Origin: a virus
Taxonomy: Duplodnaviria; Caudoviricetes
Length of the DNA stretch: 45,070 bases
Virus record (IMG/VR): IMGVR_UViG_3300037963_003539
Span: 1-45,070 of that record
Strand: one strand, 5' to 3'
The notes beneath the pieces are model-generated. The model saw nothing but the letters and a program-made list of their open reading frames with translations. It ran no database searches and was not told the DNA's origin. Below are positions 10,895 through 36,275 of the stretch, in pieces; positions within the stretch are counted from its first letter, which is position 1, and the number at the start of each line of letters is the position of its first letter. Both the position numbers and the translations under genes were made by a program.

Positions 10895-13800
10895 TCAAAT
10901 AAGCGTCCCAAAAACAGGGATATTTTGTTTAACTTCTGCGTCGAATATCAAGTCTTCAATTCTCTCTGCAGTTGGTCCAAGAGCAGGTCCAAGGAAGAAA
11001 TCTCCATATTTTTGTGCTTCATACATAGGTATGAGCAATCCAAGGGGCCCTAGTACACCAGCTCTATCAATTAGTTCACCCATGTAGCTACTCCAATCTA
11101 ATCGGTTGGTTCTAAATTTAGAAGCGTCAAAACCACTTACAGTAAACTTAATAAGTTCTCTTAGCTCTAAACCAAGTGCAGTTAAAGGTAATAGCAACGC
11201 AGCTCCCATAATAGCTGGCATCATGGCAGAAGGTATACCCTCTACACCATAACGCTGTCGCATCGTTCTACCTATACCACCTACTATTACTTTTCCGTAA
11301 GCATAATAGAAAGATTTTAATTGCCAAATAGCAGCGAAGTACGGGTTGTTAGCCCAACCCGGTCTTTCTGCAGCGTTTGGACGTACAATTGATTCATCTA
11401 CAAACTTACCTAACGCACTTCTAACAGCTTGATGTTTTCGACCAATTGTTCCTGTTAATACAAAATCATCGGCTTGCGCTGCCTCTACTTGTTCAGGAGT
11501 AACTCCTAAAGCGTCAAGCTGTTCTGCGTATAACTTGTCGCCTTTTTTAGCGCCCTCTGCTGCTCTAACCATAAACTGCTTACCCATTTGTGCAGCAAAT
11601 ATTCTAGTAAATTGGGTGTAAGCCTCTAATCCAGTAAACCTAAAGAAGTAATCCGTACCTTTTTTAAACATAGGGTTCATGTAATTTTGTTCTGCTGCAT
11701 TGATGTAATACAAACTTAAAGAGTCCGCTGCAATCACACCTAGATCTAAAGCAAACTGTCTAGCTCTTTGTCTACCCTCTTTACCCCCAAAAGCATACTC
11801 TTTAGCAAAATTAATTCCATCAGAAAAACCTTTAAAATCACCACCGTGAATCATTGGCCCAGCTAAATCTGGGAACGAAGCTAGTGGAGCTAGAGTAAGT
11901 AAAGTTACAGCGTTAAAGAATAGTAAGAAACTGTTGGTGTTTCTAAAACCAGCTGACATATCTTGACCTGCTTTACCTAGTTGTCCTCTTACAATATGCC
12001 TTAATTTTGCCTCTAGTTTAGGGTCTACTGCTTCTACTTCTGCTAAATTTGCTTCTAACGCTTTCCAACCTGTAACTACTCCTGCATCTTTTTCTTTTTG
12101 GTTAATTGTTATACCTTTACTTGTTAATATGCTTTTGGCCGCTGGGCTAATAGATCTTACATTAACTACAAAAGACTCATTGTATTGAATTCTTTTTGCC
12201 ATACTATTTAAATACTCTCGCATACCCTCTGACGCATCTTTTAGTAAACCAGCCTCTCTTAAAACTGGACTTGGTATATTTTTAAAGTATCGTTGTCTTT
12301 TTCTGTTACCACCAACTGCAAGGTCGGTAAGATCCCCTTCGTCTTCATCTACCTCATCTAAAGTAGCTTCATCTTCACTTAACAGCCTTTTTACTACTTC
12401 TTTGAAATCTAGTTTAGGATTTTTTTCTACAGCTTCTCGGTTGTATTCATACAAAAGTTCTACTAGTTTTTCTTGTTTACTGGGGTCATTAATTAACTCA
12501 AATATTGCTAGCGCCCTTGGAAAGTATTTTTGATTAAAAGGAATGCCCAAAGGTTCAAGAAAAGCTTTGTGAAAATTTTTAAGGTATAACCTAACTCTAT
12601 GCGCCCTACCTTCCCTACTTGTTGGATTAGCTTTAGCTTTTTCTGCTAGCACATTAACTGGGTTTTTTTCAAAGTCTTCCGCTATTTTAAGAACTTCATT
12701 TATCTCTTCTTTTTCATTTGGTGAAAGATATTTAGTATTGCTTAAATCAAAAATATTTAAAAACTGAGTAAAGAAACTGTTATTTCTTCTTGCATGCGTA
12801 TTTAAATACGCTGGAGTAGAGCCTGCTTTTTCTTTAGAACGAGTGTACATTTGTTGACGTAACATACGTATAACTCTCGCAAGTTTTGGGTGTTTCTTTT
12901 CAAAGTCTTTCATTAAATTATCTGTAGGATAAAGAAGATAACGTAAGCCCCAAATCTCACGAGCTGATTTATTCTTGTAAGTACTTACTATTTTACTTAC
13001 TCCTTGTTTAGTAGCCTGCCCAAGGTTATTAAATATGGTAGCGGCTTCTATCGTACTTTTTCTAGCTTCATAATAAGCTTTTGCCGGTCGTGAAACTTTT
13101 TGTGGAGTTAGATTCTGTTTAAAGATATCTCTTACATTTTGCATGTACTGTTGAAACTCAGGAGGTACTTGTCCAAAACGTTTTTGTGCCTCTGCACCTA
13201 AACTTTTGTAGAACTCTTGTAGTTTTTTAATTATACGGTGAAAGAAACTTTGTACAGCATTTCTTGGTTTTGTACCTTGGATAAAGTTAAACATCTCAGC
13301 TGCAAATTTATCTGCATACCACTCTTCAAAACCGAACTCTGGGTCTTGATATTGAGATACTTCTCCTCTATCTTCTAGGTAAGCTGCATATAGTTTTTCA
13401 AAAATAGGGTTTTTGACTGGAACCAAAGTACCATCGGATTTTTGTATTACAAAGCTCTTGCCTTCGTCTCCTAAACCACCAATTACTTTTTCGCCTTTTT
13501 TAAACACTACTCCAAGTTCTTGCCATAAGAAGGCATGTCCAAACTCGTGCCCTAAATCTTTAAAACGTCTTTCTAAAAGTCTAAGCTGACTTGCATTAGC
13601 ATCTGTTTCACTTTGCAAAGGTGTTTTTTGAATGATAATTACATTAACATTTTCAAAACGTACGATTTTACCAGTAGAGTTTTCATCCTCTAGAAGTTCT
13701 CTTTGTTCTCTTTGGATTTTTTGATTTAATCTTCTATCTGCGTTTATATCATCTTCTATAGAATCTGGGTTACGGTATTTATTAGCATTTTCAGCTAGAG

Positions 13801-16800
13801 TAAAGTTATATGCAGTTTCAGCATCTATGACTATAGTTTTTTGGTTGTAACCTAAATTTTTTGTTACATACCTTGCCATTACATCAATTAAACTTAATCC
13901 GCTTGTTAAACCCTCTTCTCTAAAAAATGATTTAATTCTTTCTGAAGCTCTTACCGTATTAGCTCCTTTTGAAGGTATAAATTGTGCGGGACCTTTTTGC
14001 GCAAACTTAAATCTTTCTAAAGGTACTCTATTACCTTCCATATCTTTTACAGTGGTAGCAGATTCAAACCTTTTATTAACTACTTTAAAATTCCTTTTTG
14101 TAATATCATCTATTTGTTCAACCTCAGGAAGATGTCTAAAAGTTAAACTAATACGTTGTGATTCGGCAGGTCCAACCTCGTGTTTGTAATTGTATTGGAA
14201 ACGCCCTTCAGGCATAACATAAACGCTACCATTACTAGTATTTATTGTTTTAGAGTCTCCAAAGTTCTCTGTTATGGTAACTGCTGCATTCCCACCAAAA
14301 CTTATAGTCGCAATACCCCCTATATCTCCAGTATCTGTCCTAAAAATTGGTTCATCATCTCTATGTGCTGCAATTTTTGCACCTTTTTCATATTTGTTTA
14401 TAAGTACACTATTAAAATACTCAGGAGGATAACCAAACATCTCGGAAAGTTGAGATGCTAAGTCACGCATTTCTTTCGGCATAGCTAGAGCGGGGTGTGA
14501 AGTACCAGTATATGAATATGGAACCCTTCCAAACCAAAGAGCAGTTCTATTCCCCCTAAAGTTTTTAATATTGTTCTTATACTTCTCCATGAAAGCATTC
14601 ATTTTCTTAAGGCTGCTTGACTCAGTAAATACCTGATTTCTGGTATCAATACCATCAATGGTGTCATCAATAGCTATGGTGCCGGCTCTACGTTCTGCTA
14701 ATAATTTTTTAATTCCTATTTCAGGAGAAGGTTTTCTTCGTCGTTGTTTTATTTCTTTCGCTCTGTCAGCCATGGCCTGTTCTTCATCTACAGTTATAGT
14801 AAGGTCGTCTGTAGGTCTGCTATCAATTATGGATGACTCAATTTCTGTGATACCAGACATCCTGCCATAAATATCTAATACAGATGTACCAGGACTATCT
14901 TCGGCTAATTCAATCCCCTCTCCAAAAGCATCTTTACTTCCTAGCACTTCTGGATTTACACCAAACTCAAGCGCTAGGCTACTTAAACTTTCGTATGCTA
15001 CAGCTGAACCCCCTGGTATATTTAATCTTAAAATCCTGCCCGCTAACTGCTCAATGTCTGCTAAATTACTTAAATTTATTGAAAGGTTTTCAGTCTCCGT
15101 CTCTGCTCGTAATTTATCCATAAAGAGTGCACCAAGTTCGCTTACAGTTAGACTAGTCTCGAGTGACCCCGGTAGTACATATTCTTTAGCATTTATATCA
15201 TAGCTTATTGGTGGGTCTTTACGTATTGGTATCATAGTGCTGCTTGGAGCCTCTCCAAAGTTACCTGGTACAAGGTTACCTCGCTGGTCTCTCTGCCCTG
15301 TTCTCTGCCCTGGAACTGTATCTATAACCGACGTCAGGACTCTTTGGGGTGGGCCTACATCATCTCCTCCCACAGGTATATCTAGCGGACGCTGCAAAAA
15401 TCTTCGTGGAAACCCTACGTCTTTGAACGTTGTTCCACCAAAAAATATGTTTCGTTCCTGGTAAGGTCCTTCCACAAAACCTCGTTTTAGTAGTGGGTTA
15501 AAGTTTGCTTCTTTAAAATAATTATTAACATAGTTAAGAGTAATAGTTGGAACCCTAAACTGCGCTCCTTTTTGTATACCCGCTAAAAATTCTAAAATGA
15601 ATATTTTTTCTTGATTTTCTTTTGAAGGTACTATATCTCCTCTGCTAAATTGAAAAGCCTCAAACGGGTCTTCTTGGCCTTTTGAGAATCTTTTTGGTCT
15701 TAATATTTCTCGTAAAATTGGATTTGCCGGCATACCGGGAAGATCTTTAAATGCATATTGATCTTTATTTAATTTAGGTTGTATTAATTTTAATTCGCCA
15801 GGAATACCTTCACGAGTTAATAGTGATAACTCTATATCTGGGTTCATTGGTACAGCAGGAATGGTAGGTACTAAATTGCCATCAACATTTTGAGATTCAG
15901 TAGAGTTCTCTCCTACATTGATTGCTCTATTTGGTATCGATATACTATCTGCCTGTTTAATCCTACCAAGCAACCTTTTAATTGCTACAGCTATGTCTGT
16001 TTCTTCGGGTGGTGCGATCTGATTTAACTCTCTTAAAGTAGAATAAACAGCAGGTTCTCCTTGCTCTTGTCTAAACATATCAAACCAAATTGGTAGATTA
16101 CTTATGTCTTGTGCCGCAGCAGCGGGTCTTCTAGCAGCAACCGTTGTCTCAGCAGCTATTGCCTCAAGAGCAGCTTTAATTTCAGGGTCGTTTCTTAGAA
16201 CTCTTTCTATAACCCTTTCTTGAGTAGTATCAATTTCGTCTAGTTGCTTATCAAGACGTTTTACGGTTTCAACTCTTTTTGTTATATCTTGTATTCTTAA
16301 TGCAGCTTCTTTTTCCTCTTCTAAACGTGTTCTTATTTCCGCTTTTAGTTCTTGCCTTTTATCATTTATAAGCTTAGTTACTGCATCTAAATCAGTTTGT
16401 ATATTGGGTGGTTGTAATCCCGGAGTATCCTCTGTAGGAGTTGTTTGTGTTTGTGCAGTACCTGCAGCGGCTAACTGTTCTGGTGTTGCCGATGGGGGTG
16501 TTCTAGAAAAAATATCCTCTATTTGGTCGTCTGTTAATCTATCTGGGTCAAGACCTAAATCACTAACAATTTGTCTCTCTTGATCTATGGCTTGATAATT
16601 TCGTTCATATTCTAATGCTGCAAAACCACCGTCTTCGCCGGCATTTGGATTTGGAGCATCTTCTGCTATTAATCTTGATAAAAGCTCTTGCGCGGTTTCT
16701 TTGCCTGATGAGTCGAAAGGATTATAAGGTACGCCTTCGCCCCTGTACAATCCGCTTAGTGAATAACCCCTTCGATCAAATTCTTCTGCAAGAAGCTTCC

Positions 16801-19800
16801 AAAAATCATCGTCCAAAACTGCGTCTTTTTCCCTTTTCTGTCTTTGAAATTTTTGATTTTCTGTTTCGTATTTATTGTATTTATCTCCCTTTGCTATATA
16901 AGCTAGACTTGGTCTTCCTCTTTTGTCAAGAAGACCTAAAGACTCTCCTATTTCTCCTACTTCTAACTGAGCATAAGTGAAAGGTTTTATTTTTCTTAAA
17001 ACTTCTTTAGCAGTAGGTCCTAAATCTGGTTCTTCTGGGTATTGTAGGAGAGTGTTTAAAGGTTCAAAGTCTGGGTCAATCGTAATAGCCTCACCAGGAC
17101 GAGTTTGCGGCGTTTGTGTTGGTATTACTTCGATTGATTCTTCATTTAAAATAAAGTAATCATCTTTACCACCGTTCTTTGTAAATTTCTGAAAGGCCTC
17201 TCTATCTGTTCCCCATTTTTCTGCATTTTCATATTTAATATTAACTACATCATAACCTTCCTCTCTTGCTTTATTTAAAGTTGATTCCAGAAGTTCAGCT
17301 GCGAATTCCGCTGGAGAATAGTCTACTACTTTTTTATATGAGTCTAAAGTAAGGACTCGAGCACTATCTTTAATACCTGCTTCAACTCTTGCAAGATCTA
17401 TCCTTACCATAGCATCTTGTTCTCTTACCCATTTTTGAGCATCATAGTCATAGTAGACTGCTTCAATATTTCCTTTCCCTTCTCCGACATACACCGTAGT
17501 AGAAGACCACCTGTCTTCATCCGTAGTAAAATAAACAACATCCTCACCAATTTTATTTGTAGCATCAAAAGGTCTTCGAATATCGTTATCTCTCAACCCA
17601 TGCACTGGAGGTTTAGTAGTATCAAATCCTTCCTCGAGAATTTTTGCAACATTTTCTGGGAGAGTAAAATGTACTATCCTATTAGGGTCAGTTGGTGGTG
17701 TTGTTTCTTGCGTTTGTGTTTTAGCTAAGTCAGTGATGTCAATATAATCATTACCATCTGCAAATTTAGTACCATCTAGTTTTCTAAAAATAATGTGTTG
17801 ACGTACTCCATTTACTTCAAAGCCTTGTAATACGTCTGTTAGCATTGAGTTAAAACCAATAACAAGTGAAGTACCATAGTCTTCAACATTATCTGGGTCT
17901 TGTTCTAAGTATAAACTTCTACCAGCTTTTAATAGTTCATTCATAGCAATGTATCTATTACCTTTAGGTAAAGTTGGCTTGTCTAAACTCATTTCTGCCT
18001 CAGTAAGATTTCTTAGTTGGCCCGTACCTGCAGGCACAATTTCCCACCTAAATCCTTGCTGCCCCTTTGGACTTCCAGTAGGGAATCTTTTATTTTTCTT
18101 AGCTGTGGTTGATCTACCTACATTCGCGTATTTATCAGCGTTGTTAAAACCTCGAATAACTATGTTTAAAGCATTTTCTTGGTCAAATGCACGACTTTCT
18201 GGAGTAGGTTCAACTATTATTCTGTTTTCTACTTGTCCGTCTTCTGCTGTCTGTTGGGTTATATCAAAGTTTTTATCTGGATTTTGTTTTACAAGCCCTA
18301 AAAAGAACGTAGCGAAAGTTTGGTTAATACTATTAGCAATAGCTTGTTTTGCAGGAGTAAGTGGGGCTTTTGCTATATTATCTTTTCCTCCTTCAAGATA
18401 ATCAATAACCTGTTGCTGAGCCCTTTTAATATTGTCTATACTCTCTTGTGTATATGGTTTAACTAGCTGTTTAGTTTTAAATTTTTGCCTAAGCGGATCG
18501 TCTAAAGGTATTAAAGCGCCTAAAGGAATTGGTTTTAAAGAACCAACAGGTTGTGGTTTACTTTTTATTCCTCTTTCTGCATCTGTAGTTTTAGGTCCAC
18601 TTGTACTAGCTAAACGCACTGTGCCTTTTTCATTAGGTCTGCCTTCTACTTCTATAAAACCCCTATCGCTTTCTCTTACTTTGTCAGTTTGTGCAGATTG
18701 TTGTTGAGTCTCATAATCAAGTCCTTCTGCTTGCGTTGTGTCAGGACTATCAGCCTCACGCCCTTCTGCTTGAGCTTGCGCTGTCTCAAAATCATCAGTG
18801 TCAGTATCATCTATGGTACTTTTACGTACTTCTGGTTCTTCCTCTTCCTCTTTCTCATTTACTTTTTCAATAGTAGCTGCAGCCACTCTTTCCTCCATGG
18901 CTGTCTCTGGATCTCTTATTCTTATAAAATATTTCTCGTCAGATCTAGGTTTTGCTTTACTCTCAGTATTAAAAATCTCGTCATAATTTCTAAGACCTCT
19001 GCCTTTAAGTCTAAATAATAAGTTTGCCGCTTCTACAGCTTTTGCTCGTTTAGCTGGAGTAGAGTCCATAGTCTGTTGCCAAACTACTTCTCCTTTTCTA
19101 TTTACAACTTCTAAAAGTAAGTCGTGGTTTTGGTTTCTTGCTTCAGAATAACCTAAAACAGAAGCTAGAGTTTTTTCAAACCGATCATAATTTCTACCAG
19201 TTGCCGCTCCTTTAAATTTAGCTATTCTATTTACTTTTGAAGGCTCACTACTATAAAAAGTACCTTGGCCTGGTAGTACTACACTTTGTAATTTTGAGTC
19301 TGTTACTTTTTGACTAAAAGTTTTAGGTATAACTGGTTGCTCTAGGGAAAATTCTTGTTGCCCTGTTTCTTCTTCCGTAGGTTTTTTAGTAGTTGCATTT
19401 CTTCTTTTTTGGTATGCAATTGCATTTAAATCTCTTTGGATGATAGCTAGTGCCTGTGCTTTATTTAAATCTTTCGTACTAGTTTTAAGCTCTATTTGCT
19501 TTTTCTTTAAACGTGTTTCAAGCTCTTTCAATAGAGCGGGACTCATCTGGCCTACCGCCTCTCCTCTGTTAAAAATATATTGAAGGGCATACTCTGGGCT
19601 ATTTACGTTTTCAAGCATAGCGCTAGGCCCTTCCCCCATAATAACTTCTTTACCACTCTCATCTATTACTTTTACATTTCCAGTCTGTGGTGACACAGCA
19701 GTAACGGTAGCTTTGTAAGGTTTACCAGTTGCATCAAATACATCTATTTGATCTCCAGCTTTTACGTTAGGGGGTATTTCAAATTTAGCAGGTTGTTGAT

Positions 19801-21763
19801 CTGGACTAGGCGCAGCTTCTTCTGTAGGTTGTTTTGGAGCTGTATCAAGACGTTCTTGGTCTTCTTCTCTTACCCACAACGAATCTTTTTTATTGTCTGT
19901 ATCTAAAACAGTATCTAATTGTGCGTTAAGTGATTCGTCTGATTCAGGTTTAAAATTAAATAAACCCCCTAAACGTGACTCTTGTTCTTCGCTTCTAGCA
20001 CGATAATCAAAACTATTATCAAGAGCATTTCTAGCTTGATTAAAAATACTTGTTACTGCAGCACCTGGAACTGCTCGAGCTCCACCACCTGCGAAAGCCC
20101 CTAAGAAAGCAGCCTCTGCTATTCTTAGTTTTGCATCCGCCGCATCATAATCTTCATCAATGGCAAATCTTTGTGCAACTGCTAACCCCTCTTGTAGAGT
20201 TTCTGCCGTACCTTCTGATACCGTACTAATACCAACTAGAGTAGCCATGTCTCTAGCAAAATTAGAGAAATAATTTGTATCTTTTTGTGCTGCTTGTAAT
20301 TTACCAAGCTCTGAATTAGTTAAAGCCTTTTGACCGCCTTTTTGATATTTTTGGTAGATGGTATAAAGGCCTTTGTTTACACCCTTAAGAGAATCAGGAT
20401 TTTTCTCTCCTTGTTCAACTATTTTACCTAAACGTGTTTTACGCAAAGCCATACTGTATAAAGACTTAGCAAAGAAAACTTCTGCCGCAGTTCCAATAAT
20501 AGCTTGTGGTAAACCTAAACCAAGAGCCGCAAACGCTTCGGGTTTACCCAACTCTCTTCCTGCTTCTCTATATTCTTGTAAAGATTGTGATGTCCCTACT
20601 TTATACTCTTGCAAAAAAGCACCAGTTATAGACCCACCTTTTACCAAACGGTTACCTAACGTCCAAGCCTCCTCCAAAACTACTCTTTCTTCAGGAGATA
20701 AAGCTCTTAAGCCCGCAGCGCCTCCTCCGGCCATTCTGTATTTCTTTATGGCATCTTTTAACAGCTGCTTAGTTGCCGCTTTACCACCACGTTTTAAACT
20801 TTCTTTTAATATAAAGCCTACTCCACCACCTGCTATTGCACTGGTAATAGTTTCTAGAGCTTGGGGTAGTATTTTACCTATCCCACCAAACACCTGTTCA
20901 ATTCCACCAGCAAAAGTAGGGTTATCATAAAACTCTTTAAAAGGAGTTAGTTCTTGGAAATACTCTGCTGCCTGCCTTTCATAAAAATCAGCTGTCGCTA
21001 AATTAGCTACTGCAGCTTCATCTCTTCCAAGGGCAATATTAAAAGCGGCCTTCATGCTATTCCAATCAGCCCCTGTTTGCTCTATCCCTCCTGCAAACCC
21101 ATACGTAAATTTATCAATTAAGCCTTCCGGTTTGGGTTTTCTTTCTGGAAAAGGTTGAGGTGTTACAAAAGTCGAAGTCCGCATGGCAGCTGCGTCGGGG
21201 TAAAGGAATACACCAGTTAAGTCTGTACCGGCTGAAGCTATTCTTGTGTCTGGTTCCGGTTCAATAGGTGGTAATACGGTAGGTCCTTCAAGACCTTTTA
21301 TAGAATCTGCAAATAGTTCTGCTCTGTTTATGTCTTTACCTGACTCTTGTAAATACCAGTTAGAGTCTATTGCTTCTTTTGCTGCAGAGTCAAAGTCTCT
21401 ACTCTTTAAGGCAGCCCAAGTTTTTTCTAAGGCATTAGGGTTTACGTCTTTATTCCACCAGTTCTCTCCTAATTGAAAATTAGTATGGGTTAATCTCTCT
21501 ATAAACCTTTCGTCATCGGTGCCATAACCAAGCTCTTGTGCTTGACTTAATGCTGCTTCATAAGCTTTTGTCGCATCAGCCTCAAACCATTGTGTAAGAT
21601 CTCCAGGGCGAATTCTATCTCCAGCTTGATATTGATTTAATTCAGCACCGGTTAATTTATGTCCTACACCTGCAGTCAGGTTCCCTAGCTTATCAGTGTA
21701 AACATAATCTTTACTGCCTTCTTCGGTAAGAAGTGAATTTAAGATATATTGAGGTACCTGCAC
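10895..21763 (-). CDS. Giant (3622 aa) internal virion/ejection 'polyvalent' protein: lysozyme + ART-like + AlkB + zincin domains
   Basis: Position after the ejection-protein genes. N-terminal E-x8-D-x5-T (EGSKDYVYTDKLGNLT) T4-lysozyme triad; HFT...VYFT...GYD ART-like motif; N.Y...HRD...H...RISLTFR AlkB motif; HEFGH...EEWYAD zincin; helical/hydrophobic C-terminus. Confidence 0.9.
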   Translation of the reverse strand: MQVPQYILNSLLTEEGSKDYVYTDKLGNLTAGVGHKLTGAELNQYQAGDRIRPGDLTQWFEADATKAYEAALSQAQELGYGTDDERFIERLTHTNFQLGENWWNKDVNPNALEKTWAALKSRDFDSAAKEAIDSNWYLQESGKDINRAELFADSIKGLEGPTVLPPIEPEPDTRIASAGTDLTGVFLYPDAAAMRTSTFVTPQPFPERKPKPEGLIDKFTYGFAGGIEQTGADWNSMKAAFNIALGRDEAAVANLATADFYERQAAEYFQELTPFKEFYDNPTFAGGIEQVFGGIGKILPQALETITSAIAGGGVGFILKESLKRGGKAATKQLLKDAIKKYRMAGGGAAGLRALSPEERVVLEEAWTLGNRLVKGGSITGAFLQEYKVGTSQSLQEYREAGRELGKPEAFAALGLGLPQAIIGTAAEVFFAKSLYSMALRKTRLGKIVEQGEKNPDSLKGVNKGLYTIYQKYQKGGQKALTNSELGKLQAAQKDTNYFSNFARDMATLVGISTVSEGTAETLQEGLAVAQRFAIDEDYDAADAKLRIAEAAFLGAFAGGGARAVPGAAVTSIFNQARNALDNSFDYRARSEEQESRLGGLFNFKPESDESLNAQLDTVLDTDNKKDSLWVREEDQERLDTAPKQPTEEAAPSPDQQPAKFEIPPNVKAGDQIDVFDATGKPYKATVTAVSPQTGNVKVIDESGKEVIMGEGPSAMLENVNSPEYALQYIFNRGEAVGQMSPALLKELETRLKKKQIELKTSTKDLNKAQALAIIQRDLNAIAYQKRRNATTKKPTEEETGQQEFSLEQPVIPKTFSQKVTDSKLQSVVLPGQGTFYSSEPSKVNRIAKFKGAATGRNYDRFEKTLASVLGYSEARNQNHDLLLEVVNRKGEVVWQQTMDSTPAKRAKAVEAANLLFRLKGRGLRNYDEIFNTESKAKPRSDEKYFIRIRDPETAMEERVAAATIEKVNEKEEEEEPEVRKSTIDDTDTDDFETAQAQAEGREADSPDTTQAEGLDYETQQQSAQTDKVRESDRGFIEVEGRPNEKGTVRLASTSGPKTTDAERGIKSKPQPVGSLKPIPLGALIPLDDPLRQKFKTKQLVKPYTQESIDNIKRAQQQVIDYLEGGKDNIAKAPLTPAKQAIANSINQTFATFFLGLVKQNPDKNFDITQQTAEDGQVENRIIVEPTPESRAFDQENALNIVIRGFNNADKYANVGRSTTAKKNKRFPTGSPKGQQGFRWEIVPAGTGQLRNLTEAEMSLDKPTLPKGNRYIAMNELLKAGRSLYLEQDPDNVEDYGTSLVIGFNSMLTDVLQGFEVNGVRQHIIFRKLDGTKFADGNDYIDITDLAKTQTQETTPPTDPNRIVHFTLPENVAKILEEGFDTTKPPVHGLRDNDIRRPFDATNKIGEDVVYFTTDEDRWSSTTVYVGEGKGNIEAVYYDYDAQKWVREQDAMVRIDLARVEAGIKDSARVLTLDSYKKVVDYSPAEFAAELLESTLNKAREEGYDVVNIKYENAEKWGTDREAFQKFTKNGGKDDYFILNEESIEVIPTQTPQTRPGEAITIDPDFEPLNTLLQYPEEPDLGPTAKEVLRKIKPFTYAQLEVGEIGESLGLLDKRGRPSLAYIAKGDKYNKYETENQKFQRQKREKDAVLDDDFWKLLAEEFDRRGYSLSGLYRGEGVPYNPFDSSGKETAQELLSRLIAEDAPNPNAGEDGGFAALEYERNYQAIDQERQIVSDLGLDPDRLTDDQIEDIFSRTPPSATPEQLAAAGTAQTQTTPTEDTPGLQPPNIQTDLDAVTKLINDKRQELKAEIRTRLEEEKEAALRIQDITKRVETVKRLDKQLDEIDTTQERVIERVLRNDPEIKAALEAIAAETTVAARRPAAAAQDISNLPIWFDMFRQEQGEPAVYSTLRELNQIAPPEETDIAVAIKRLLGRIKQADSISIPNRAINVGENSTESQNVDGNLVPTIPAVPMNPDIELSLLTREGIPGELKLIQPKLNKDQYAFKDLPGMPANPILREILRPKRFSKGQEDPFEAFQFSRGDIVPSKENQEKIFILEFLAGIQKGAQFRVPTITLNYVNNYFKEANFNPLLKRGFVEGPYQERNIFFGGTTFKDVGFPRRFLQRPLDIPVGGDDVGPPQRVLTSVIDTVPGQRTGQRDQRGNLVPGNFGEAPSSTMIPIRKDPPISYDINAKEYVLPGSLETSLTVSELGALFMDKLRAETETENLSINLSNLADIEQLAGRILRLNIPGGSAVAYESLSSLALEFGVNPEVLGSKDAFGEGIELAEDSPGTSVLDIYGRMSGITEIESSIIDSRPTDDLTITVDEEQAMADRAKEIKQRRRKPSPEIGIKKLLAERRAGTIAIDDTIDGIDTRNQVFTESSSLKKMNAFMEKYKNNIKNFRGNRTALWFGRVPYSYTGTSHPALAMPKEMRDLASQLSEMFGYPPEYFNSVLINKYEKGAKIAAHRDDEPIFRTDTGDIGGIATISFGGNAAVTITENFGDSKTINTSNGSVYVMPEGRFQYNYKHEVGPAESQRISLTFRHLPEVEQIDDITKRNFKVVNKRFESATTVKDMEGNRVPLERFKFAQKGPAQFIPSKGANTVRASERIKSFFREEGLTSGLSLIDVMARYVTKNLGYNQKTIVIDAETAYNFTLAENANKYRNPDSIEDDINADRRLNQKIQREQRELLEDENSTGKIVRFENVNVIIIQKTPLQSETDANASQLRLLERRFKDLGHEFGHAFLWQELGVVFKKGEKVIGGLGDEGKSFVIQKSDGTLVPVKNPIFEKLYAAYLEDRGEVSQYQDPEFGFEEWYADKFAAEMFNFIQGTKPRNAVQSFFHRIIKKLQEFYKSLGAEAQKRFGQVPPEFQQYMQNVRDIFKQNLTPQKVSRPAKAYYEARKSTIEAATIFNNLGQATKQGVSKIVSTYKNKSAREIWGLRYLLYPTDNLMKDFEKKHPKLARVIRMLRQQMYTRSKEKAGSTPAYLNTHARRNNSFFTQFLNIFDLSNTKYLSPNEKEEINEVLKIAEDFEKNPVNVLAEKAKANPTSREGRAHRVRLYLKNFHKAFLEPLGIPFNQKYFPRALAIFELINDPSKQEKLVELLYEYNREAVEKNPKLDFKEVVKRLLSEDEATLDEVDEDEGDLTDLAVGGNRKRQRYFKNIPSPVLREAGLLKDASEGMREYLNSMAKRIQYNESFVVNVRSISPAAKSILTSKGITINQKEKDAGVVTGWKALEANLAEVEAVDPKLEAKLRHIVRGQLGKAGQDMSAGFRNTNSFLLFFNAVTLLTLAPLASFPDLAGPMIHGGDFKGFSDGINFAKEYAFGGKEGRQRARQFALDLGVIAADSLSLYYINAAEQNYMNPMFKKGTDYFFRFTGLEAYTQFTRIFAAQMGKQFMVRAAEGAKKGDKLYAEQLDALGVTPEQVEAAQADDFVLTGTIGRKHQAVRSALGKFVDESIVRPNAAERPGWANNPYFAAIWQLKSFYYAYGKVIVGGIGRTMRQRYGVEGIPSAMMPAIMGAALLLPLTALGLELRELIKFTVSGFDASKFRTNRLDWSSYMGELIDRAGVLGPLGLLIPMYEAQKYGDFFLGPALGPTAERIEDLIFDAEVKQNIPVFGTLI

Positions 21764-21775
21764 ACTCTTTACCCT

Positions 21776-24274
21776 CTATAAGTTATTTTTGTTTAGTATT
21801 GCAGAAACCGCGGCTTGTTCTTTAAAGGCTTTCATTAAATTTGGATCCTGTACATCTTCATAAGAAATGGATGCTACAGAACTTCCACCCGCTGGGTCTA
21901 AAATTATAAATCTCTGGGCGTCGGGGTCGTCACGTAATCTAGACATCGTTTCCATGAAAGCTTGCGGAGTTTCGTCGTAATTAGAGACAAATGGAATTTT
22001 TTCTATTAGGTCTCTCCACCAAGATTTATCAGCCAATTGTTTAATTTTCATTTGAATTAGTTTAGCTTGGCCCTCTTTATATCTCTGGACAGAGAGTTTA
22101 AATCCTTCATTCTGTATAATTCTTGCATCTGTTGTTCCGTTTTCTACTCCTCGTAGCATTGAAAGTATCATAGCATTAGCAGTACCTAGGTTAGCTACCC
22201 CTTCGTTAAGCATATTATTTCTTTCTGTCGTACTAAACTTAGGATCATCAATCTTAGTAAAGTCTAAGTTGCCTAAAGCGCTATCTAAAGTATTTGAAAG
22301 AACGCTAATACCTGATGTGTCTACAGGTGGTGCGCTAACTTGTTCTGGTGCGATAAAAGTGCCATAAGTAAGAAAATTTGTAACATTATCTGAAGTCATA
22401 AAGGTATTATACATTTTACTATTTGGGTCCATCGTTCCATATATTCGTAACATAGCCCCATATCTAGCTACAGGAGAGGCTTGCCCAAGGTTACCATTAG
22501 CCATAGCCGGTATATTAAACAGTTCTTCGAGTTTAGCTTGGTCCTTATCATTTACTTCAATAGCTTGGTTTATTAACGTTCTAATGCTGTCTATGGATTC
22601 GCCATTCTCTATAGCTTTTTTTATTTTAGGGAAATACGTTAAACTCTCCTTACTCAAAGAGGCACGTATTGCGCTGTCGTCTGTTGAAGATACTGCTGCT
22701 CCAAATAAATCGGTTTTGCTATTATTAAGAGCAAACTCATAAGGGTCATTTAGATATTCTTGTAACTTCTCGGGGTTAGCAGCACTTAACCTATCTATCA
22801 ATTCTTTGTGCTCTTTACCAGAATAAAATTCATTTACTGTTTTTATGTTGTTTCTTCTATCTTCAGTGCTTATACCGTCCTCTGGGCCAGCTCTTCTTTC
22901 TTCTCTTATACGAGTGTCTATATCGTTTGTAACACCTCTGACCACATCTTTTAAAAGCCCCTCTCTGTAATTATCTGATTCTCTACGAAGCTTCTGTTGC
23001 TCCTCTATACTAAAAAAGCCTAATTGTGTATCACTTATGCCATAAATAGAGCCTTTTGGATAAATTTTTAAATCTCTTGTGGTTACATTTCCGGGAGGAG
23101 AATAGGCAGGTAAACTATACTCTCCTGTTAGACCAGCCTGAGGGACTACATATCCCCTAGCTTTATCACCTGAAGCTTTAAATTGTTTTATTGCCTCTAA
23201 AACTTCTTCTTTAGTATCGGCTGTTGCAACTCTTTCTTTTAAACCAAACAAGTTATCTGTTTCTGTAAGAGTTAAACCATCTCCGCCAGTAAACGCTTGC
23301 TCTTGATCTTCTTGTTCAGTTGCGGTTATTATTTTATTTAGTGCGTCTAGTTTTGTTCGTCTGTCAGTAGTTTCGGAACTAATTTTGTCAAACTCAGCTT
23401 TATACTGATCAAACGCTTGCTCAGTTAAACCCACCATTGCCCCTATTTGACCACCATTAGGCATTTTATTTACTAAATCTGTATAAAGCGCTTTGTAAGC
23501 GGTGTCTAAATATTTATTTATAGGAATATCTTGACCAGCAAAATCTTTTGTTACTCCCCCTAAAAATTCTTGATCTGATGCTATTTCAGAATCGGTCATG
23601 TCAGCTAAATTAGTGCCGTCTGAAGTAAGGTCAGCAGAGTAAAAAAATTGACCGCCGTCTTTGTTTCGACCGACTGATCTGACTAAAGGATTAATAATCG
23701 CGTATCTCCCGTTTTGATTTATACCATATTGAGAGCCAATCCAATCTATTTTTTTACCTTTCCCAAAAAGTTTATAGTCATAACCTAAACTGTTTTGTAA
23801 TAAACTTGCATTATATCTACCATTACTTTCATCCCCTAACGCTTTACCTAAAGTTACAGCAGTGCTCGGTGTTAGTTTAAAAAGATCAGTATCATCTACT
23901 TCAAGCTCGTTCTTAAATTTATCGAAAGCCTCTTCATCTCTAAACGCGGACTGGTCTGGTAAGTCTTCCCACTCTGTATTTTTAAATGTTCTTGCGTCTC
24001 CTAAAATTTGTGTTTGGATATCAAGAATATTACCTAGTTGGTTAGATCGTCCTCTATCTATGCCTTCTTGATTAGTTGCACCAATATCGAAACCAAAAAA
24101 TTGTTTCCATCTATCACCTGGCGTCTTCCTTCTGTATTCTACTTGCGATTGGCCAAAAGGGTTATTACTAGCTAAACCGCTACCTCCACTACCTCCACTA
24201 CCCTCACCTGGAGTAAATGGGTTAAAGGGAGTACTCCCAAAAGTGCTATCAAAAGTATCTTTTTCTGTCGCCAT
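21776..24274 (-). CDS. Internal virion (ejection) protein, 832 aa
   Basis: Large helical protein directly upstream of the giant protein; synteny with podovirus ejectosome genes. Confidence 0.65.
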   Translation of the reverse strand: MATEKDTFDSTFGSTPFNPFTPGEGSGGSGGSGLASNNPFGQSQVEYRRKTPGDRWKQFFGFDIGATNQEGIDRGRSNQLGNILDIQTQILGDARTFKNTEWEDLPDQSAFRDEEAFDKFKNELEVDDTDLFKLTPSTAVTLGKALGDESNGRYNASLLQNSLGYDYKLFGKGKKIDWIGSQYGINQNGRYAIINPLVRSVGRNKDGGQFFYSADLTSDGTNLADMTDSEIASDQEFLGGVTKDFAGQDIPINKYLDTAYKALYTDLVNKMPNGGQIGAMVGLTEQAFDQYKAEFDKISSETTDRRTKLDALNKIITATEQEDQEQAFTGGDGLTLTETDNLFGLKERVATADTKEEVLEAIKQFKASGDKARGYVVPQAGLTGEYSLPAYSPPGNVTTRDLKIYPKGSIYGISDTQLGFFSIEEQQKLRRESDNYREGLLKDVVRGVTNDIDTRIREERRAGPEDGISTEDRRNNIKTVNEFYSGKEHKELIDRLSAANPEKLQEYLNDPYEFALNNSKTDLFGAAVSSTDDSAIRASLSKESLTYFPKIKKAIENGESIDSIRTLINQAIEVNDKDQAKLEELFNIPAMANGNLGQASPVARYGAMLRIYGTMDPNSKMYNTFMTSDNVTNFLTYGTFIAPEQVSAPPVDTSGISVLSNTLDSALGNLDFTKIDDPKFSTTERNNMLNEGVANLGTANAMILSMLRGVENGTTDARIIQNEGFKLSVQRYKEGQAKLIQMKIKQLADKSWWRDLIEKIPFVSNYDETPQAFMETMSRLRDDPDAQRFIILDPAGGSSVASISYEDVQDPNLMKAFKEQAAVSAILNKNNL

Positions 24275-24286
24275 TCTTTATACCTA

Positions 24287-24970
24287 CTATGCAAACAGGA
24301 TTGCCGCCATAGCTGCTGTAGCTAATACGCTACCACCAATCTGTCTATTTTGTGCTGCATGTTGTGCCCTTGCTTGAGTAAAGGCATTCTGTCTACTTAC
24401 ATCATTTGCAGCAGCAGTACCCAACCCAGTTAAAGAGCTCCTGTTAACCCCTTGCCCAATATTTATTAAATTAGCTAAGGTTCTATTATTTGCATCTAAC
24501 TGTGCTAGTCGAGCGTTATTTAAACCGCCTGTCAGTGCTAAAGCTTCGCCTCTTTGGCTAGCTGCTTCTCTACCTTGTCTTAAAGCAGCAGTTTCTGACA
24601 TGCCTAACCTTTCTCTATTACGTCTAGCAACGTCTTCTGCAATTTGTGTTTGCTGCGCTACATCTTCTGGCACAGCATCTACAAGACTTGTGTCTTTTCT
24701 ATTTCGTAACATCTCTTCTTCAAAAGGACGAAAATCATTTATATATCTACCATATTGCCTTATTGCAACATCAGCGTAATCAAAATCTGGGTTAGCAGAA
24801 GGGGAAAGTCCTAACTTACTCCTTTCGTTTTTTAAATAGCCTTGTTGTCCTTCTTTAGTAGTTGTGTCAAAAGCAGTCTTAACCGGAGGTGGAGTAAAAC
24901 CATAGAAAGTTCCTCCCGTTTCGCCACCAATGTTCATGGTATTTAAAAAACTGTAGTCTAAAGCCGCCAT
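24287..24970 (-). CDS. Internal virion (ejection) protein
   Basis: A/Q/R-rich helical protein with hydrophobic C-terminus; synteny. Confidence 0.6.
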   Translation of the reverse strand: MAALDYSFLNTMNIGGETGGTFYGFTPPPVKTAFDTTTKEGQQGYLKNERSKLGLSPSANPDFDYADVAIRQYGRYINDFRPFEEEMLRNRKDTSLVDAVPEDVAQQTQIAEDVARRNRERLGMSETAALRQGREAASQRGEALALTGGLNNARLAQLDANNRTLANLINIGQGVNRSSLTGLGTAAANDVSRQNAFTQARAQHAAQNRQIGGSVLATAAMAAILFA

Positions 24971-24993
24971 ATTATTACACCATACCTCTCATA

Positions 24994-25551
24994 TTAAGTA
25001 ACTGCCAAAGAACGATAAGGGTTCGTCTTATCGTCTGCTAGTACTTGTCTCATTTTTGTTTTAGCTGCGGTGAGACCTATGTTTGCTAGCGCAGCTTTGT
25101 TTGCTCTTCTTACTGTTTGTTTCTCTGCAGCTCTTGCGAGTGTTTCAGATCTTTCTAATTTAGAGGCCTGTGCTAAAGCGCTACCGGCATCTGCTGCTTG
25201 TCCACGAGCAATACCTAATACATTTAAACCCTCTTGGTCTTTTACACCTTTTGCTGTGACGTTTGCAGAAAGCATTTGTCCAATAGCTCCAGAGGCCATG
25301 TTTGCAGCATTGTCTACCGCGCTAGTAACTCCGGGAGCAAGAGGTTGCCCAGTTAAAGCCTGCATAGTATCAGCTTGAGCTCTGCCACGTAGAGTTTGTT
25401 GTCTGTTAGAGCTACGAGCTTCATCTCTCATTTCCCTTAATAACGGGTCATAAGTGCTTTCAAAGTAATCCTGATCAGCTTTTGCTATAGCAGATTGAAT
25501 TTTTTCAGTTTCACCTGGTTGGTAATCTGCCTGTTTTGGACCACTGCCCAT
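24994..25551 (-). CDS. Internal virion (ejection) protein
   Basis: Ala/Gly/Gln-rich, MGSGPK N-terminus; follows the GNAT-like gene as in P22/T7-like layouts. Confidence 0.6.
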   Translation of the reverse strand: MGSGPKQADYQPGETEKIQSAIAKADQDYFESTYDPLLREMRDEARSSNRQQTLRGRAQADTMQALTGQPLAPGVTSAVDNAANMASGAIGQMLSANVTAKGVKDQEGLNVLGIARGQAADAGSALAQASKLERSETLARAAEKQTVRRANKAALANIGLTAAKTKMRQVLADDKTNPYRSLAVT

Positions 25552-25553
25552 AT

Positions 25554-25997
25554 TTATACCTCTTTTTTATAAACTGTAGTTATTGCTTTAAATCCATGCT
25601 TTTCAGCCGCCCTACTCCATCCAGGTCGGTCGGAATGAAACTCCATTCCTGTTATGCTAGTGTTTTGTATTAGACCTTCTAAAAACTCTACACCAGCGCT
25701 TATTATATTATACCCGGGTCTGCTGTATGCAACCCAAATAAATAAAGTTTTCTCTCCTCCAGCATCATCTAAAACTGACACTATAACAAAACCTGCATAG
25801 TAGTTATCCTCATACACCATGTATAACTCAGAACTGCCTTTTCGCAATGCTGCATATACATCGGCGGGTATCCAATCCGCGTATGACTTTTGAGCTACTT
25901 TTTTAAGGTCCGGTTCTATTGTGTTGTAAGCAACTTTAACATCCTCTAAAGGAATGTACTCAAAGACCTTACCATTAATAGTCCAACTCTTTGCCAT
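25554..25997 (-). CDS. GNAT-fold virion assembly protein (T7 gp13-like position)
   Basis: LFIWVAYS...MEFHSDRPGWSR..EKHGF motif; start re-assigned to MAKSWT. Confidence 0.6.
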   Translation of the reverse strand: MAKSWTINGKVFEYIPLEDVKVAYNTIEPDLKKVAQKSYADWIPADVYAALRKGSSELYMVYEDNYYAGFVIVSVLDDAGGEKTLFIWVAYSRPGYNIISAGVEFLEGLIQNTSITGMEFHSDRPGWSRAAEKHGFKAITTVYKKEV

Positions 25998-26658
25998 ATC
26001 GTCCATACCTCTTCCTTGGGGATAAACCTGCACTTTTATATTTAACTGTTCTTTTTACACCAATGTTTCCGCCTCTACCTCTCAACTCCGCATCATTTAT
26101 TTGGTTTTGAAATAGATTAAAATAATCAGCTGAGGCTTGTGGATTAGTCCACTCTTTACCCGGTATTCTTAATAATCTGTAAATAGCACCGTATATAATC
26201 CCGTCTCGATAATCATTACTAAAATTAGTATCTATACTATTAGTAGTCCTAGTAGGTTTTAAGGCTACGTTCAAGAGCAACCCATTTACAGTTTTTGTAT
26301 TCGGGACTGGCACCAACCAAAAGGTATCGGGTGTCTTTTGTAAGTACACAGCGGGTACTCCAGACTTATCTCGCCAATCTGGGTAATTTAATTCTAAACT
26401 TCTTGGACTAATAGGGTCTAAATCATCCCCGTCATAAGTAGCCCACAATATTTGGTGTACATCTGTACCACTGGGTTGATCAAACTCATACTCATATGTG
26501 CCTGATATTGTAGTTATTGGGTCTAGGTCATAGGTAAAAGCTTTACTTTTTTCACAAAGCTCTATGGTTGCAGAACGTAAGTTATTTCTAATTAAAGAAT
26601 CTGGACAACCCGGAACATATGGCAATACATCTTTTATTAAACTTTCAAAACTAGCCAT
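25975..26658 (-). CDS. Head-tail adaptor-like protein
   Basis: VLPYVPGCPD.L...AT.ELC, G.P..Y, LVPVP, ALKP motifs; after the capsid gene. Confidence 0.7.
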   Translation of the reverse strand: MASFESLIKDVLPYVPGCPDSLIRNNLRSATIELCEKSKAFTYDLDPITTISGTYEYEFDQPSGTDVHQILWATYDGDDLDPISPRSLELNYPDWRDKSGVPAVYLQKTPDTFWLVPVPNTKTVNGLLLNVALKPTRTTNSIDTNFSNDYRDGIIYGAIYRLLRIPGKEWTNPQASADYFNLFQNQINDAELRGRGGNIGVKRTVKYKSAGLSPRKRYGRYGKELDY

Positions 26659-27343
26659 TATTTCTCATCGCCTCCGCTTGCGGTGCATTTGATTCTTGTT
26701 GAGCAAAACCAGTACCTAAACTCATCTGAAAAGCGTTAAAGTAAGCGGTAGCTTTTTGTAAACCACCACCAGCTTCTGCATCTTTTAAATAAGCTTTGTA
26801 CGTTACAAAATCCATAAGGGCATTTGCAAAAATATCATCTACTTGTATTAAGTCAGTATTAGACCCAATACTAGTAGGGTTTTTAGAATATACTACCTCT
26901 ATATAAGCACTACCAGATACTCCAGGGTAAACATAAAATTTCCTAGGGTCTCTAGGATCAAACATAAAATGCTTAACTACTGTACCATGAGCTGCATCAC
27001 CCGTAGCTGTAGGGTCATGCCAATCAGGGTCTACACTATTTATAGCTTCAAATTCAGTTCTACGTATAACTTTACCACCCGTTGCATCACTAGCAGTACC
27101 AGACATATTTCGCACAATATTTAATAAACGTAAGCCATCGGAAGGTATTGTTTGTTCAGTGCCAGTTGCTAATAGCACATTTGCGTGTGTAGCAGTAGAA
27201 TCTGGGCGAAAATTAGCAATCTCCCTTTGGGCATCACTTAAATAATCAAATAGTTCCCCGTCGGTCCAACGCACACCAGTATTATCCTGAAGTGTATTAC
27301 GCACCCTGGATAATATGTGTTGTGCTTGTAACGTACCAGCCAT
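26651..27343 (-). CDS. Head-tail adaptor-like protein (DUF6682-like)
   Basis: LQD..GVRWT..EL.DYL.DAQREI...RPD, FYVYP, AL.D.V.Y.AY.KDAE motifs. Confidence 0.75.
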   Translation of the reverse strand: MAGTLQAQHILSRVRNTLQDNTGVRWTDGELFDYLSDAQREIANFRPDSTATHANVLLATGTEQTIPSDGLRLLNIVRNMSGTASDATGGKVIRRTEFEAINSVDPDWHDPTATGDAAHGTVVKHFMFDPRDPRKFYVYPGVSGSAYIEVVYSKNPTSIGSNTDLIQVDDIFANALMDFVTYKAYLKDAEAGGGLQKATAYFNAFQMSLGTGFAQQESNAPQAEAMRNNG

Positions 27344-27577
27344 CTAGTCTTCTTCTTTTTTCTCTGTTTTCTTAACGAGTTTTGGCTTTGCTTTAGGTTC
27401 AGGCTTTGGCTTAGGTTCTTCTCTTACTTCCTTAGCCCCAGCTTGTATACAAGCATATCCAATATACTCTGGGAATTCTCTTGCTTCTCCTGCGTATAAA
27501 CGAACAGCATCACCAGTTTTTAGTGATACATATAAGTCTGTTTCTGAGATAACTTTCATAGTTTTTCTTTCTTCCAT
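27344..27577 (-). CDS. Small capsid-adjacent hypothetical protein
   Basis: 77 aa, GGAG RBS, PK-rich tail. Confidence 0.65.
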   Translation of the reverse strand: MEERKTMKVISETDLYVSLKTGDAVRLYAGEAREFPEYIGYACIQAGAKEVREEPKPKPEPKAKPKLVKKTEKKEED

Positions 27578-27595
27578 TTAAAACTCCTGTTTAGT

Positions 27596-27624
27596 AGAAA
27601 GAGGTGGTCCGAAGACCACCCCTA
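27596..27624 (-). terminator. Rho-independent terminator after the major capsid gene
   Basis: Minus strand AGGGGTGGTC-TTCG-GACCACCTCT followed by TTTC; cUUCGg tetraloop; short U tract suggests a leaky terminator. Confidence 0.75.
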
Positions 27625-27630
27625 TCTTAA

Positions 27631-28767: not shown

Positions 28768-28794
28768 TAGGCCCTCCAAATAAAAATTAATAAA

Positions 28795-28960
28795 ATAACC
28801 AATCGCTATTTGGGGCGATATCCCGTATACCCTTTATCGTTGGGATACGATACCGTAGGTTTTACGAGCACGACCTCGAACAGTTAACGTCGTTGTAGAC
28901 GAAAAAACGATTTTTATACTGAACGACCAGTTGTTGGATATCGTTCCAACCGACGAATTC
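28795..28960 (-). promoter_or_regulatory. Structured 5' leader of the capsid gene (about six small hairpins)
   Basis: Minus-strand stems GTTGGA/TCCAAC, ACTG/CAGT, CGTC/GACG, CGAG/CTCG, CGTATCCC/GGGTATACG, ATCGC/GCGAT. Confidence 0.55.
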
Positions 28961-28979
28961 TTTAATACTATACTACTAT

Positions 28980-33771: not shown

Positions 33772-34162
33772 CTGAAAATCTTTTGACGCTATCACTATCC
33801 ATAATAACATGTACTTCTGCTGATCTTTGATTAGCAATCTTAGGGTCGTAAATAGGCCAAAGCCCCTGTTCTATTTCATCTTTCCAATATGCTAATGCTT
33901 GGCCTTCTTGCATGGGTTTATTATCATTGTGTCCGGGTACAAACCCTGGAACAGAAGCAATCATCCCTTTGTATTTACCTTCCTGTACCATAGGCCCCAT
34001 CATAAATGCAGTCATAACTCTTCCATCAGGGCTTGTTGCCCCAACATCTAAATTTCTTCTATGGTAAGCAATAACACGTTGTTCAGGTTCAGTTAAAGTT
34101 GCCTCTACCTGATCTGCATACTGAAATAATTCCTCTTTAGACTCAAATTTACCGTCTTTCAT
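33752..34162 (-). CDS. Hypothetical protein inserted between terS and terL
   Basis: 136-aa ORF overlapping both neighbours. Confidence 0.7.
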   Translation of the reverse strand: MKDGKFESKEELFQYADQVEATLTEPEQRVIAYHRRNLDVGATSPDGRVMTAFMMGPMVQEGKYKGMIASVPGFVPGHNDNKPMQEGQALAYWKDEIEQGLWPIYDPKIANQRSAEVHVIMDSDSVKRFSDGNKQD

Positions 34163-35146: not shown

Positions 35147-35266
35147 GCTTGCTAACTGTAGCATAAATTTTTGCTAGAAAATTTTTTTGTGAAAATTTTT
35201 TTCTATATCGCTCATGCAAGGCACCCCTTACTTAGAGAGACCCAGCCACTAGTCCCGAATCTGAGT

Positions 35267-35307
35267 TTGGAACCTTGTCCCACAAAAAGTAGCATTGGAA
35301 CCTTGTC
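35267..35307 (+). repeat. 13-bp direct repeat TTGGAACCTTGTC (two copies)
   Basis: Exact copies at 35267 and 35295 in the divergent intergenic region. Confidence 0.8.
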
Positions 35308-35412
35308 AAAAGTTAGAGTCAGTTAGCTTCGGCAGAGACATCTTATTTAGCTAAAGCTTGGTATAAAACTTTATACTTCTCCCCACTACCCCACAGGATT
35401 TATACATTTTCG

Positions 35413-35444: not shown

Positions 35445-35508
35445 CCTCATTGTGATTGGTAGAGATAGGCTCTATCAGCACTTATCTTTTTTTATTTATG
35501 GAGAAATT

Positions 35509-36269: not shown

Positions 36270-36275
36270 CACTTC

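Follow-up and report, generated by a model that had tools for sequence, protein, structure and literature searches.

AlkB-type dioxygenases have been described from both cells and viruses. According to PMC11065319, ALKBH3 prefers single-stranded DNA (ssDNA) and acts on m1A and m3C in DNA and RNA; D135 of Escherichia coli AlkB binds adenine N6 and cytosine N4; the kcat/Km of the wild-type enzyme is 0.007 for m6A compared with 3.7 for m1A (approximately 500-fold worse); and the F1 β-hairpin sets the preference for single or double strands. Viral AlkBs are described in PMC2553587 as reactivating methylated phage, with those of plant viruses preferring RNA, and AlkB in DNA phages is described in PMC7824862 as a rare stand-alone gene only. 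Here, we analyzed an AlkB-type 2-oxoglutarate (2OG)- and Fe(II)-dependent dioxygenase domain that is embedded in a virion-type protein of 3622 amino acids (aa) from an uncultured marine KPP25-like podophage. The domain lies in the IMG/VR record IMGVR_UViG_3300037963_003539 (Caudoviricetes; positions 1 to 45,070), and this whole stretch of 45,070 nucleotides (nt) is referred to as the window.

Two further described systems are close to this locus. Polyvalent proteins, as presented in PMC5512222, are similar to the window protein in that they are large late-gene products joining unrelated enzymes and are predicted to be injected; a zincin-like peptidase family of these phage proteins is described in the same source. 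The terms AlkB, 2OG, dioxygenase, NADAR and YpsA are absent from its main text, and its supplements (131 domains) could hold an entry. The phage NADAR factors acting against DarTG1 (AdfN), which according to PMC11257639 reverse the DNA ADP-ribosylation made by host DarT1, offer a second likeness, since they are phage enzymes that strip phage nucleic acid of a mark placed by the host, although their fold and chemistry are unrelated to those of AlkB. AlkB and polyvalent proteins were each already known, and their combination is new relative to the literature searched. In that literature, which left subscription journals mostly outside, no report of a virion-borne AlkB was found, and 'AlkB' is absent from the main text of PMC11125620.

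The AlkB domain

The open reading frame (ORF) at 10895-21763 (-) encloses the AlkB-type domain, whose elements are as follows.

14120..14611 (-): AlkB-type 2OG-Fe(II) dioxygenase domain, aa 2385-2548 (Pfam, PDB relatives, model fold)
14504..14548 (-): nucleotide-recognition lid RTALWFGRVPYSYTG, aa 2406-2420; Y2416 and Y2418 invariant in 30/30 aligned members
14351..14398 (-): N2456-x-Y2458 and metal motif H2467-R-D2469-D-E2471 (translation, alignment)
14135..14182 (-): distal H2528 and R2537-x5-R2543 (translation, alignment)

All AlkB motifs are in frame with zero stops; in the translation of the ORF, RTALWFG begins at aa 2406 (nt 14548) and RISLTFR at aa 2537 (nt 14155). The domain matched PF13532 over aa 2404-2543 (46.6 bits, cut-off 31.2; E = 6.2e-12) and PHROG 21963 'alkylated DNA repair' (E = 8.8e-9), and human ALKBH3 was its best solved relative by sequence (E = 4.6e-6 with the single sequence and 1.3e-14 with the family profile). 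A preliminary description of the window, made from the letters alone, had claimed an intact AlkB-type dioxygenase with all catalytic elements, and these results bear out the claim. Together with the lid tyrosines, the iron triad (H2467, D2469 and H2528) and the 2OG motif R2537-x5-R2543 were invariant in the 30 aligned members. The tyrosine of N-x-Y, listed there among the catalytic elements, proved variable, being F or I in several members of the wider family.

We then considered the fold, for which Foldseek comparison of an AlphaFold2 model served as evidence. The model built with a 30-sequence alignment reached a mean pLDDT (predicted local distance difference test) of 95.1 and a predicted template-modelling score (pTM) of 0.89, and that built from the single sequence was unusable (pLDDT 44.9). 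The top match was ALKBH3 (8jnr, E = 2.9e-10, template-modelling (TM) score 0.78), followed by ALKBH2 (TM 0.76) and E. coli AlkB (TM 0.75), and the best viral matches were the AlkBs of RNA-virus polyproteins (TM up to 0.83). According to this model, the domain is a double-stranded β-helix with a nucleotide-recognition lid, the fold on which the preliminary description had made its claim depend.

The likeness to ALKBH2/3 proposed in that description was supported. With ALKBH3 (PDB 8JNR, 2IUW) and ALKBH2 (3BTY), the domain shares not only the β-helix fold (TM 0.76-0.78) and the R-x3-W-x-G..Y-x-Y lid but also FNS-x-L-x-N, HxDDE (HRDDE in the window), the distal H and R-x5-R. It differs from them in its identity of only ~24%, in its embedding in a phage protein and in an apparently shorter N-terminal hairpin: ahead of the lid strand, the model has only a short hairpin (E16-18, E22-28). 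E. coli AlkB is similar in fold, in its catalytic residues and in an acidic residue at the position of D135, whereas the window domain falls outside the E. coli-type AlkB equivalog (30.5 bits against a cut-off of 267 for NF011930, and 24 against 231 for TIGR00568) and is distant from it in the trees. The residue in question, E2471, lies two positions after HxD (HxD+2), was equated with D135 by counting from HxD and is invariant in the aligned members; an acidic residue was found there in 47 of 48 readable top matches (at least 100 bits). A non-acidic residue at this position, as in the m6A erasers FTO and ALKBH5, is not present in the window domain.

The AlkBs of plant RNA-virus replicases, as described in PMC2553587, also form a minimal core within a large multidomain viral protein, are patchy and laterally moved, and have a YSY-x-G lid. 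In contrast to them, the window domain belongs to a tailed phage with double-stranded DNA, sits in a virion-type protein and falls on another branch; activity was demonstrated for the plant RNA-virus enzymes in the same source, whereas the window domain is known from its sequence and model. The likeness claimed earlier thus stands for fold and lid motif and fails for tree grouping.

The domain was similar to the whole gene in base composition (GC 0.37 and third-position GC (GC3) 0.26, compared with 0.38 and 0.22), and it is under purifying selection, with ratios of nonsynonymous to synonymous substitution rates (dN/dS) of 0.10-0.36 across five pairwise comparisons. It recurs at 90-93% identity in 10 other long proteins. 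An assembly chimera or frameshift was rejected, because an independent seawater study of 2024 (run X10) has a contig that covers 13000-15236, across both AlkB borders, and the 10 relatives keep the fusion. An antisense ORF of 93 aa at 14180-14461 (+) overlaps the domain and was taken as its shadow.

The giant protein and its phage

The protein that carries the domain has the following parts and neighbors.

10895..21763 (-): giant polyvalent virion-type protein, 3622 aa (phrog_30152, E = 5e-18; phrog_6958); orthologue of KPP25 ORF088 and phiA008 gp66
21284..21763 (-): N-terminal phage-lysozyme-like domain, aa 1-160 (PDB 'Internal virion protein' 28sd, E = 6e-4)
13184..13696 (-): zincin-like metallopeptidase motif HEFGH (aa 2739)...EEWYAD (aa 2813), at motif level only
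11123..12025 (-): conserved C-terminal scaffold domain, aa 3247-3547
21776..33837 (-): late operon of 832-aa and 227-aa genes of no known family, two SU10-type adaptors, major capsid, P22-like portal and large terminase (Pfam, PHROG)

The late operon lies upstream of the giant ORF on the same strand. By homology and gene order the ORF is of virion type, as the preliminary description had held, and it likely encodes an ejection protein that is injected with the genome. Its orthologues KPP25 ORF088, labeled 'virion structural protein' in RefSeq, and gp66 of Aeromonas phage phiA008 share its C-terminal domain (25-31% identity) and the HExxH motif and are ~2000 aa long; they differ in being 1600 aa shorter and without the AlkB domain. 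The major capsid shares 54% identity with its counterpart in Pseudomonas phage KPP25 (Kochitakasuvirus) and 45% with the one in phiA008.

The window protein has the sequence layout of phage polyvalent proteins (lysozyme, HExxH peptidase, variable cargo and a late gene), with at least two unrelated enzymatic domains, AlkB and lysozyme-like, plus the peptidase motif in one polypeptide. The PF00959 lysozyme match rises above the cut-off in the close relatives P0002-P0004. The peptidase motif sits 190 aa downstream of AlkB and is present in 98 of 120 orthologues; the region gave no Pfam match in the window protein, and it is possibly an autoprocessing domain. A role of the protein as virion RNA polymerase was rejected: phrog_2206 was not matched, the catalytic motif DxDGD/DxDID was found neither in the window protein nor in any of the 120 orthologues, and the only similarity to N4-like carriers was a stretch of ~80 aa found in one relative.

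The record, a linear virus contig with a completeness of 77%, is present in marine metagenome sequencing runs; none of the runs listed is an RNA run.

AlkB as an optional module of the scaffold

We examined the best 120 of 367 long orthologues found with a search for the C-terminal domain. The survey of ejection-type proteins suggested in the preliminary description gave AlkB in 12 of the 120, namely the window's own group (11) and P0052, whose domain is 45% identical. P0052 and P0050 are 99-100% identical save for an in-frame insert of 314 aa that holds AlkB. We built a FastTree tree from the C-termini of 123 proteins, namely the 120 orthologues with L010, L011 and L048. On this tree, the presence and absence of AlkB required 4 changes, all forced by branches with support of at least 95; the direction, gain or loss, is not fixed by the tree. 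AlkB is accordingly an optional, swappable cassette of a giant scaffold. No direct repeats bounding the cassette were found among the 20 largest of 49 repeat families.

14126..14719 (-): insert absent from the nearest AlkB-less orthologue P0012, aa ~2349-2546 (approximate extent)
17204..17686 (-): second optional module, with ADP-ribosyltransferase-like motifs, aa 1360-1520; in 8/120 orthologues

Using profiles built on Pfam-located copies, we counted the modules that occupy the same middle zone in the 108 AlkB-less orthologues: NADAR (22), YAcAr SLOG (10), cpYpsA SLOG (9) and DUF7831 (6). Of 56 module matches, 55 fell within this variable zone, which AlkB and NADAR modules thus both occupy.

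The module at aa 1360-1520 contains the motifs H-F-T..I..EGFD, YFT and GYD, which we take to recall ART-PolyVal ADP-ribosyltransferases; searches of Pfam, NCBIfam and PDB gave no match confirming this identity. PF18760 occurs in 16% of the members of its Atlas neighbor (score 0.88). This module has moved laterally, because it is 90-91% identical in P0013 and P0017, although their C-termini reach an identity of just 65%. Two further optional modules, which belong to no known family, were observed at 19364-19846 (-) and 16454-17101 (-), each in 6/120 orthologues, the former being 79% identical in the distant P0030.

The same AlkB lineage in other phages

Profile scans for the AlkB lineage found 29 loci in IMG/VR and 37 in metagenomes, with 6 further loci in a later scan; narrow profile scans of IMG/VR found 2 near relatives only. 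From the 29 and 37 loci, we classified the 59 of at least 80 bits and left out 7 weaker ones; the two collections share some contigs, and the sequence of L037 is identical to that of the window. The AlkB ORFs comprised 23 longer than 900 aa, 30 complete stand-alone genes (188-270 aa) and 6 cut ones. Among 14 giant ORFs scanned, 6 matched the N4-like virion RNA polymerase family phrog_2206 (as did the fragment L024), one (L042) matched the internal virion protein families phrog_7348/342, and 3 had the KPP25-type scaffold. L015, L016 and L079 contain a DxDGD motif, a hint that they may be two-barrel polymerases. In a library of 1.84 billion proteins, 35 of the best 150 AlkB representatives were at least 900 aa long. 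The injected role, which the preliminary description called unusual, is so with respect to the literature searched, yet the arrangement is recurrent in marine and freshwater phage data.

In the cultured phage collection, the window domain had one weak match, in an unannotated 595-kb record, and a stand-alone member used as query had none. In bacterial and archaeal genomes, none of 19 pattern matches was confirmed, which is weak evidence given the strict patterns.

A Dda-like SF1 helicase directly follows AlkB in 4 N4-like virion RNA polymerases (L024, L052, L059 and L062) and lies near it in two other giant proteins (L078 and L079). The arrangement of AlkB before a Dda-like helicase was found in three unrelated scaffolds, and the domain order in P0123 is SLOG-AlkB-NADAR-helicase. 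In phage proteins of 3100-4100 aa (L081:3515-12931 and L083:3203-15580), an insertion separates the N-x-Y strand of AlkB from HxD; these proteins also bear cpYpsA, NADAR or DUF7831. Some stand-alone AlkB genes have a stand-alone YAcAr SLOG (L040:5748-6116) or DUF4326 (L023:4729-5025) gene nearby or immediately ahead of them.

Of the 30 complete stand-alone genes, 16 are found either ahead of an N4-like RNA polymerase gene and on its strand, or opposite the terminase cluster. In N4, this placement corresponds to the early region. Most AlkB copies that could be placed are thus either early or part of virion-type proteins, and there is one clear exception. In an N4-like group (L026, L027, L029, L030 (7857-10408), L031 and L032), the stand-alone AlkB has an N-terminal extension of ~100 aa and comes after a B12-binding radical-SAM-like gene of 537 aa on the terminase strand (best NCBIfam match 61.5 bits, below all cut-offs); the two genes are possibly a methylase/demethylase pair.

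The phylogeny that the preliminary description had called for placed the domain among phages. In a 55-row IQ-TREE tree, 40 phage rows including the window domain formed one group (support 100/99), separate from two RNA-virus rows, five retroelement-like rows and the ALKBH2/3-like rows. The five rows combine AlkB with a GDSL-like domain and are putatively eukaryotic retroelement ORF1-like. In a 192-row tree, which excludes one long-branch row and matches shorter than 125 aa, the phage group comprised 103 rows with an SH-aLRT support of only 86, and a further 9 rows, mostly fused, fell outside it. AlkB was therefore probably fused into giant proteins in more than one AlkB lineage. Human proteins are in neither tree; in both, the window domain lies on a branch separate from the ALKBH2/3-like bacterial and viral rows and does not group inside them.

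Predicted role of the domain

We favor, with a probability of roughly 0.4, the hypothesis that the domain is a co-injected 1mA/3mC-type dealkylase that shields single-stranded phage DNA or the first transcripts from host-inflicted alkylation. Delivery and 1mA/3mC-type dealkylation chemistry are together probable, whatever the source or target of the lesions; the host as their source is the most speculative part.

Judging from homology and gene order, the giant protein would be packaged and injected with the genome, and since injection with the DNA is likely, the predicted methyl-stripping enzyme would arrive before phage genes are read. AlkB, possibly released by the HExxH peptidase, would then act on phage ssDNA or the first transcripts at entry, and the biochemistry of the family points to Fe(II)/2OG-dependent oxidative dealkylation at N1-purine/N3-pyrimidine adducts with single strands preferred. 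The late operon, the virion PHROGs and the lysozyme matching a PDB internal virion protein argue for delivery, as does the occurrence of the same AlkB lineage in N4-like virion RNA polymerases and in an internal virion protein of phrog_7348/342. Single-strand dealkylation at entry is predicted because HxD+2 is acidic, ALKBH3 prefers ssDNA and plant-virus AlkBs prefer RNA. The preliminary description had proposed demethylation of alkylated or host-marked phage DNA or early RNA; within that proposal, 1mA/3mC is favored and the erasure of host m6A-type marks becomes the less likely part, because HxD+2 is acidic like D135 of AlkB.

In duplex DNA, adenine N1 and cytosine N3 are shielded, and packaged DNA should therefore gather few lesions at these positions by itself. 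Host-inflicted marks are favored because of the cassette-like turnover and the slot shared with NADAR.

Several observations weigh against the favored hypothesis. No methylating anti-phage defense was found in the literature searched, and we know of no host methylating counterpart for AlkB. The co-travel of AlkB with NADAR/SLOG in the scaffold family was not supported: NAD/ADP-ribose modules showed no enrichment among AlkB carriers (1/12, compared with 26/108 non-carriers), and the link between AlkB and NADAR is accordingly a shared slot and no partnership. In the comparison with L001, the domain had a higher dN/dS (0.36) than the scaffold C-terminus (0.11). Among the 30 complete stand-alone genes, 8 lack a positional marker, and 6 share the strand of the terminase and immediately follow the B12-radical-SAM-like gene, a placement at odds with an early-only role. 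The PF00959 lysozyme match in the window protein is weak (E = 0.005, below the Pfam cut-off), and the cryo-EM paper on Kochitakasuvirus A1002 (PMC13730344), as far as its consulted part extends, contains nothing on ejection proteins. Finally, a folded domain of 165 aa must pass a narrow tail channel and so would need to refold and load iron in the host.

The main rival is plain repair, in which the delivered AlkB keeps the first genes readable by clearing alkyl or etheno lesions that arise from methylating agents in seawater or from the metabolism of the host; we regard it as unlikely, if the least so of the alternatives. Its parallel is the plant-virus AlkBs acting for RNA genomes, and it agrees with the phage reactivation and RNA preference given in PMC2553587, with the RNA-virus polyprotein AlkBs as best viral fold matches, with the Dda-like helicase after or near AlkB in six giant proteins and with the lack of a known defense counterpart. 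However, a general benefit hardly explains the absence of AlkB from 108/120 orthologues or its swapping between 99% identical proteins, and the shielding of N1-A and N3-C applies to duplex virion DNA.

It is improbable that the injected enzyme instead demethylates host RNA (m1A, m3C and m1G in tRNA or rRNA), thereby bending translation towards the phage. Few injected copies would face thousands of tRNAs, and no tRNA-related genes were noted beside stand-alone AlkB copies, even though ALKBH3, the closest solved relative, acts on DNA and RNA (PMC11065319), viral AlkBs prefer RNA (PMC2553587) and the short hairpin ahead of the lid strand in the model suggests a single-strand preference. Slightly more improbable is that the domain is not delivered, being cut off before packaging or working late. 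P1 DdrB is processed before packaging (PMC5512222), the peptidase motif lies close downstream of AlkB and the 6 stand-alone copies mentioned above are on the late strand; on the other hand, the N4 virion RNA polymerase is packaged unprocessed according to the same source, its relatives carry the same AlkB lineage, and this reading would not account for the repeated fusions with giant virion-type proteins.

It is very unlikely that the domain erases restriction-modification marks (m6A, m4C and 5mC) from the DNA of host or phage, a role suggested for the stand-alone AlkBs of jumbo phages. Such erasure has been proposed for sporadic phage AlkBs (PMC7824862), and GATC is rarer than expected in the whole window (73 seen compared with 119.5 expected from trinucleotide counts), but GATC avoidance is common and unspecific, AlkB is ~500-fold worse on m6A than on m1A (PMC11065319) with the acidic HxD+2 kept here, and the model has no long duplex-probing hairpin. 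The yardstick for the latter is the hairpin length of ALKBH2. Least likely of all is that AlkB makes or tidies a phage base modification, by oxidizing a methylated base or removing off-target methylation by a phage methylase: the radical-SAM-like gene before AlkB in L026-L032 would fit, but none of the 36 window proteins scanned in this 77% complete record matched a methyltransferase, sequence and fold are ALKBH2/3-like, and injection is ill-timed for modifying new DNA.

Other features of the window

A 676-aa gene at 2771-4801 (-), an 'internal virion protein' by phrog_511, follows the lysis genes and lies apart from the giant ORF. The region 35165-41300 contains a strand switch near 35.5-36.3 kb and short plus-strand ORFs with long gaps and no Pfam or PHROG match.

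Implications

The window contributes a non-polymerase ejection-type scaffold for AlkB, a natural pair with and without the domain, and a link to early stand-alone genes. The presence of AlkB as cargo in a non-polymerase protein of virion type suggests that early delivery, and not coupling to a polymerase, is selected. The pair of P0052 and P0050 and the stand-alone homologues are natural controls, and the compact 165-aa domain is a candidate demethylase reagent. As a doubtful conjecture, the phage AlkB lineage may counter an undescribed bacterial defense that alkylates N1/N3 positions of incoming phage DNA or early RNA, so that the two would form a methyl-based parallel to DarTG/NADAR, with the eraser plugged repeatedly into injected giant proteins by unrelated phages and acting before gene expression. 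If the lesions are indeed made by the host, the enzyme would point to an unknown class of nucleic-acid-alkylating defense.

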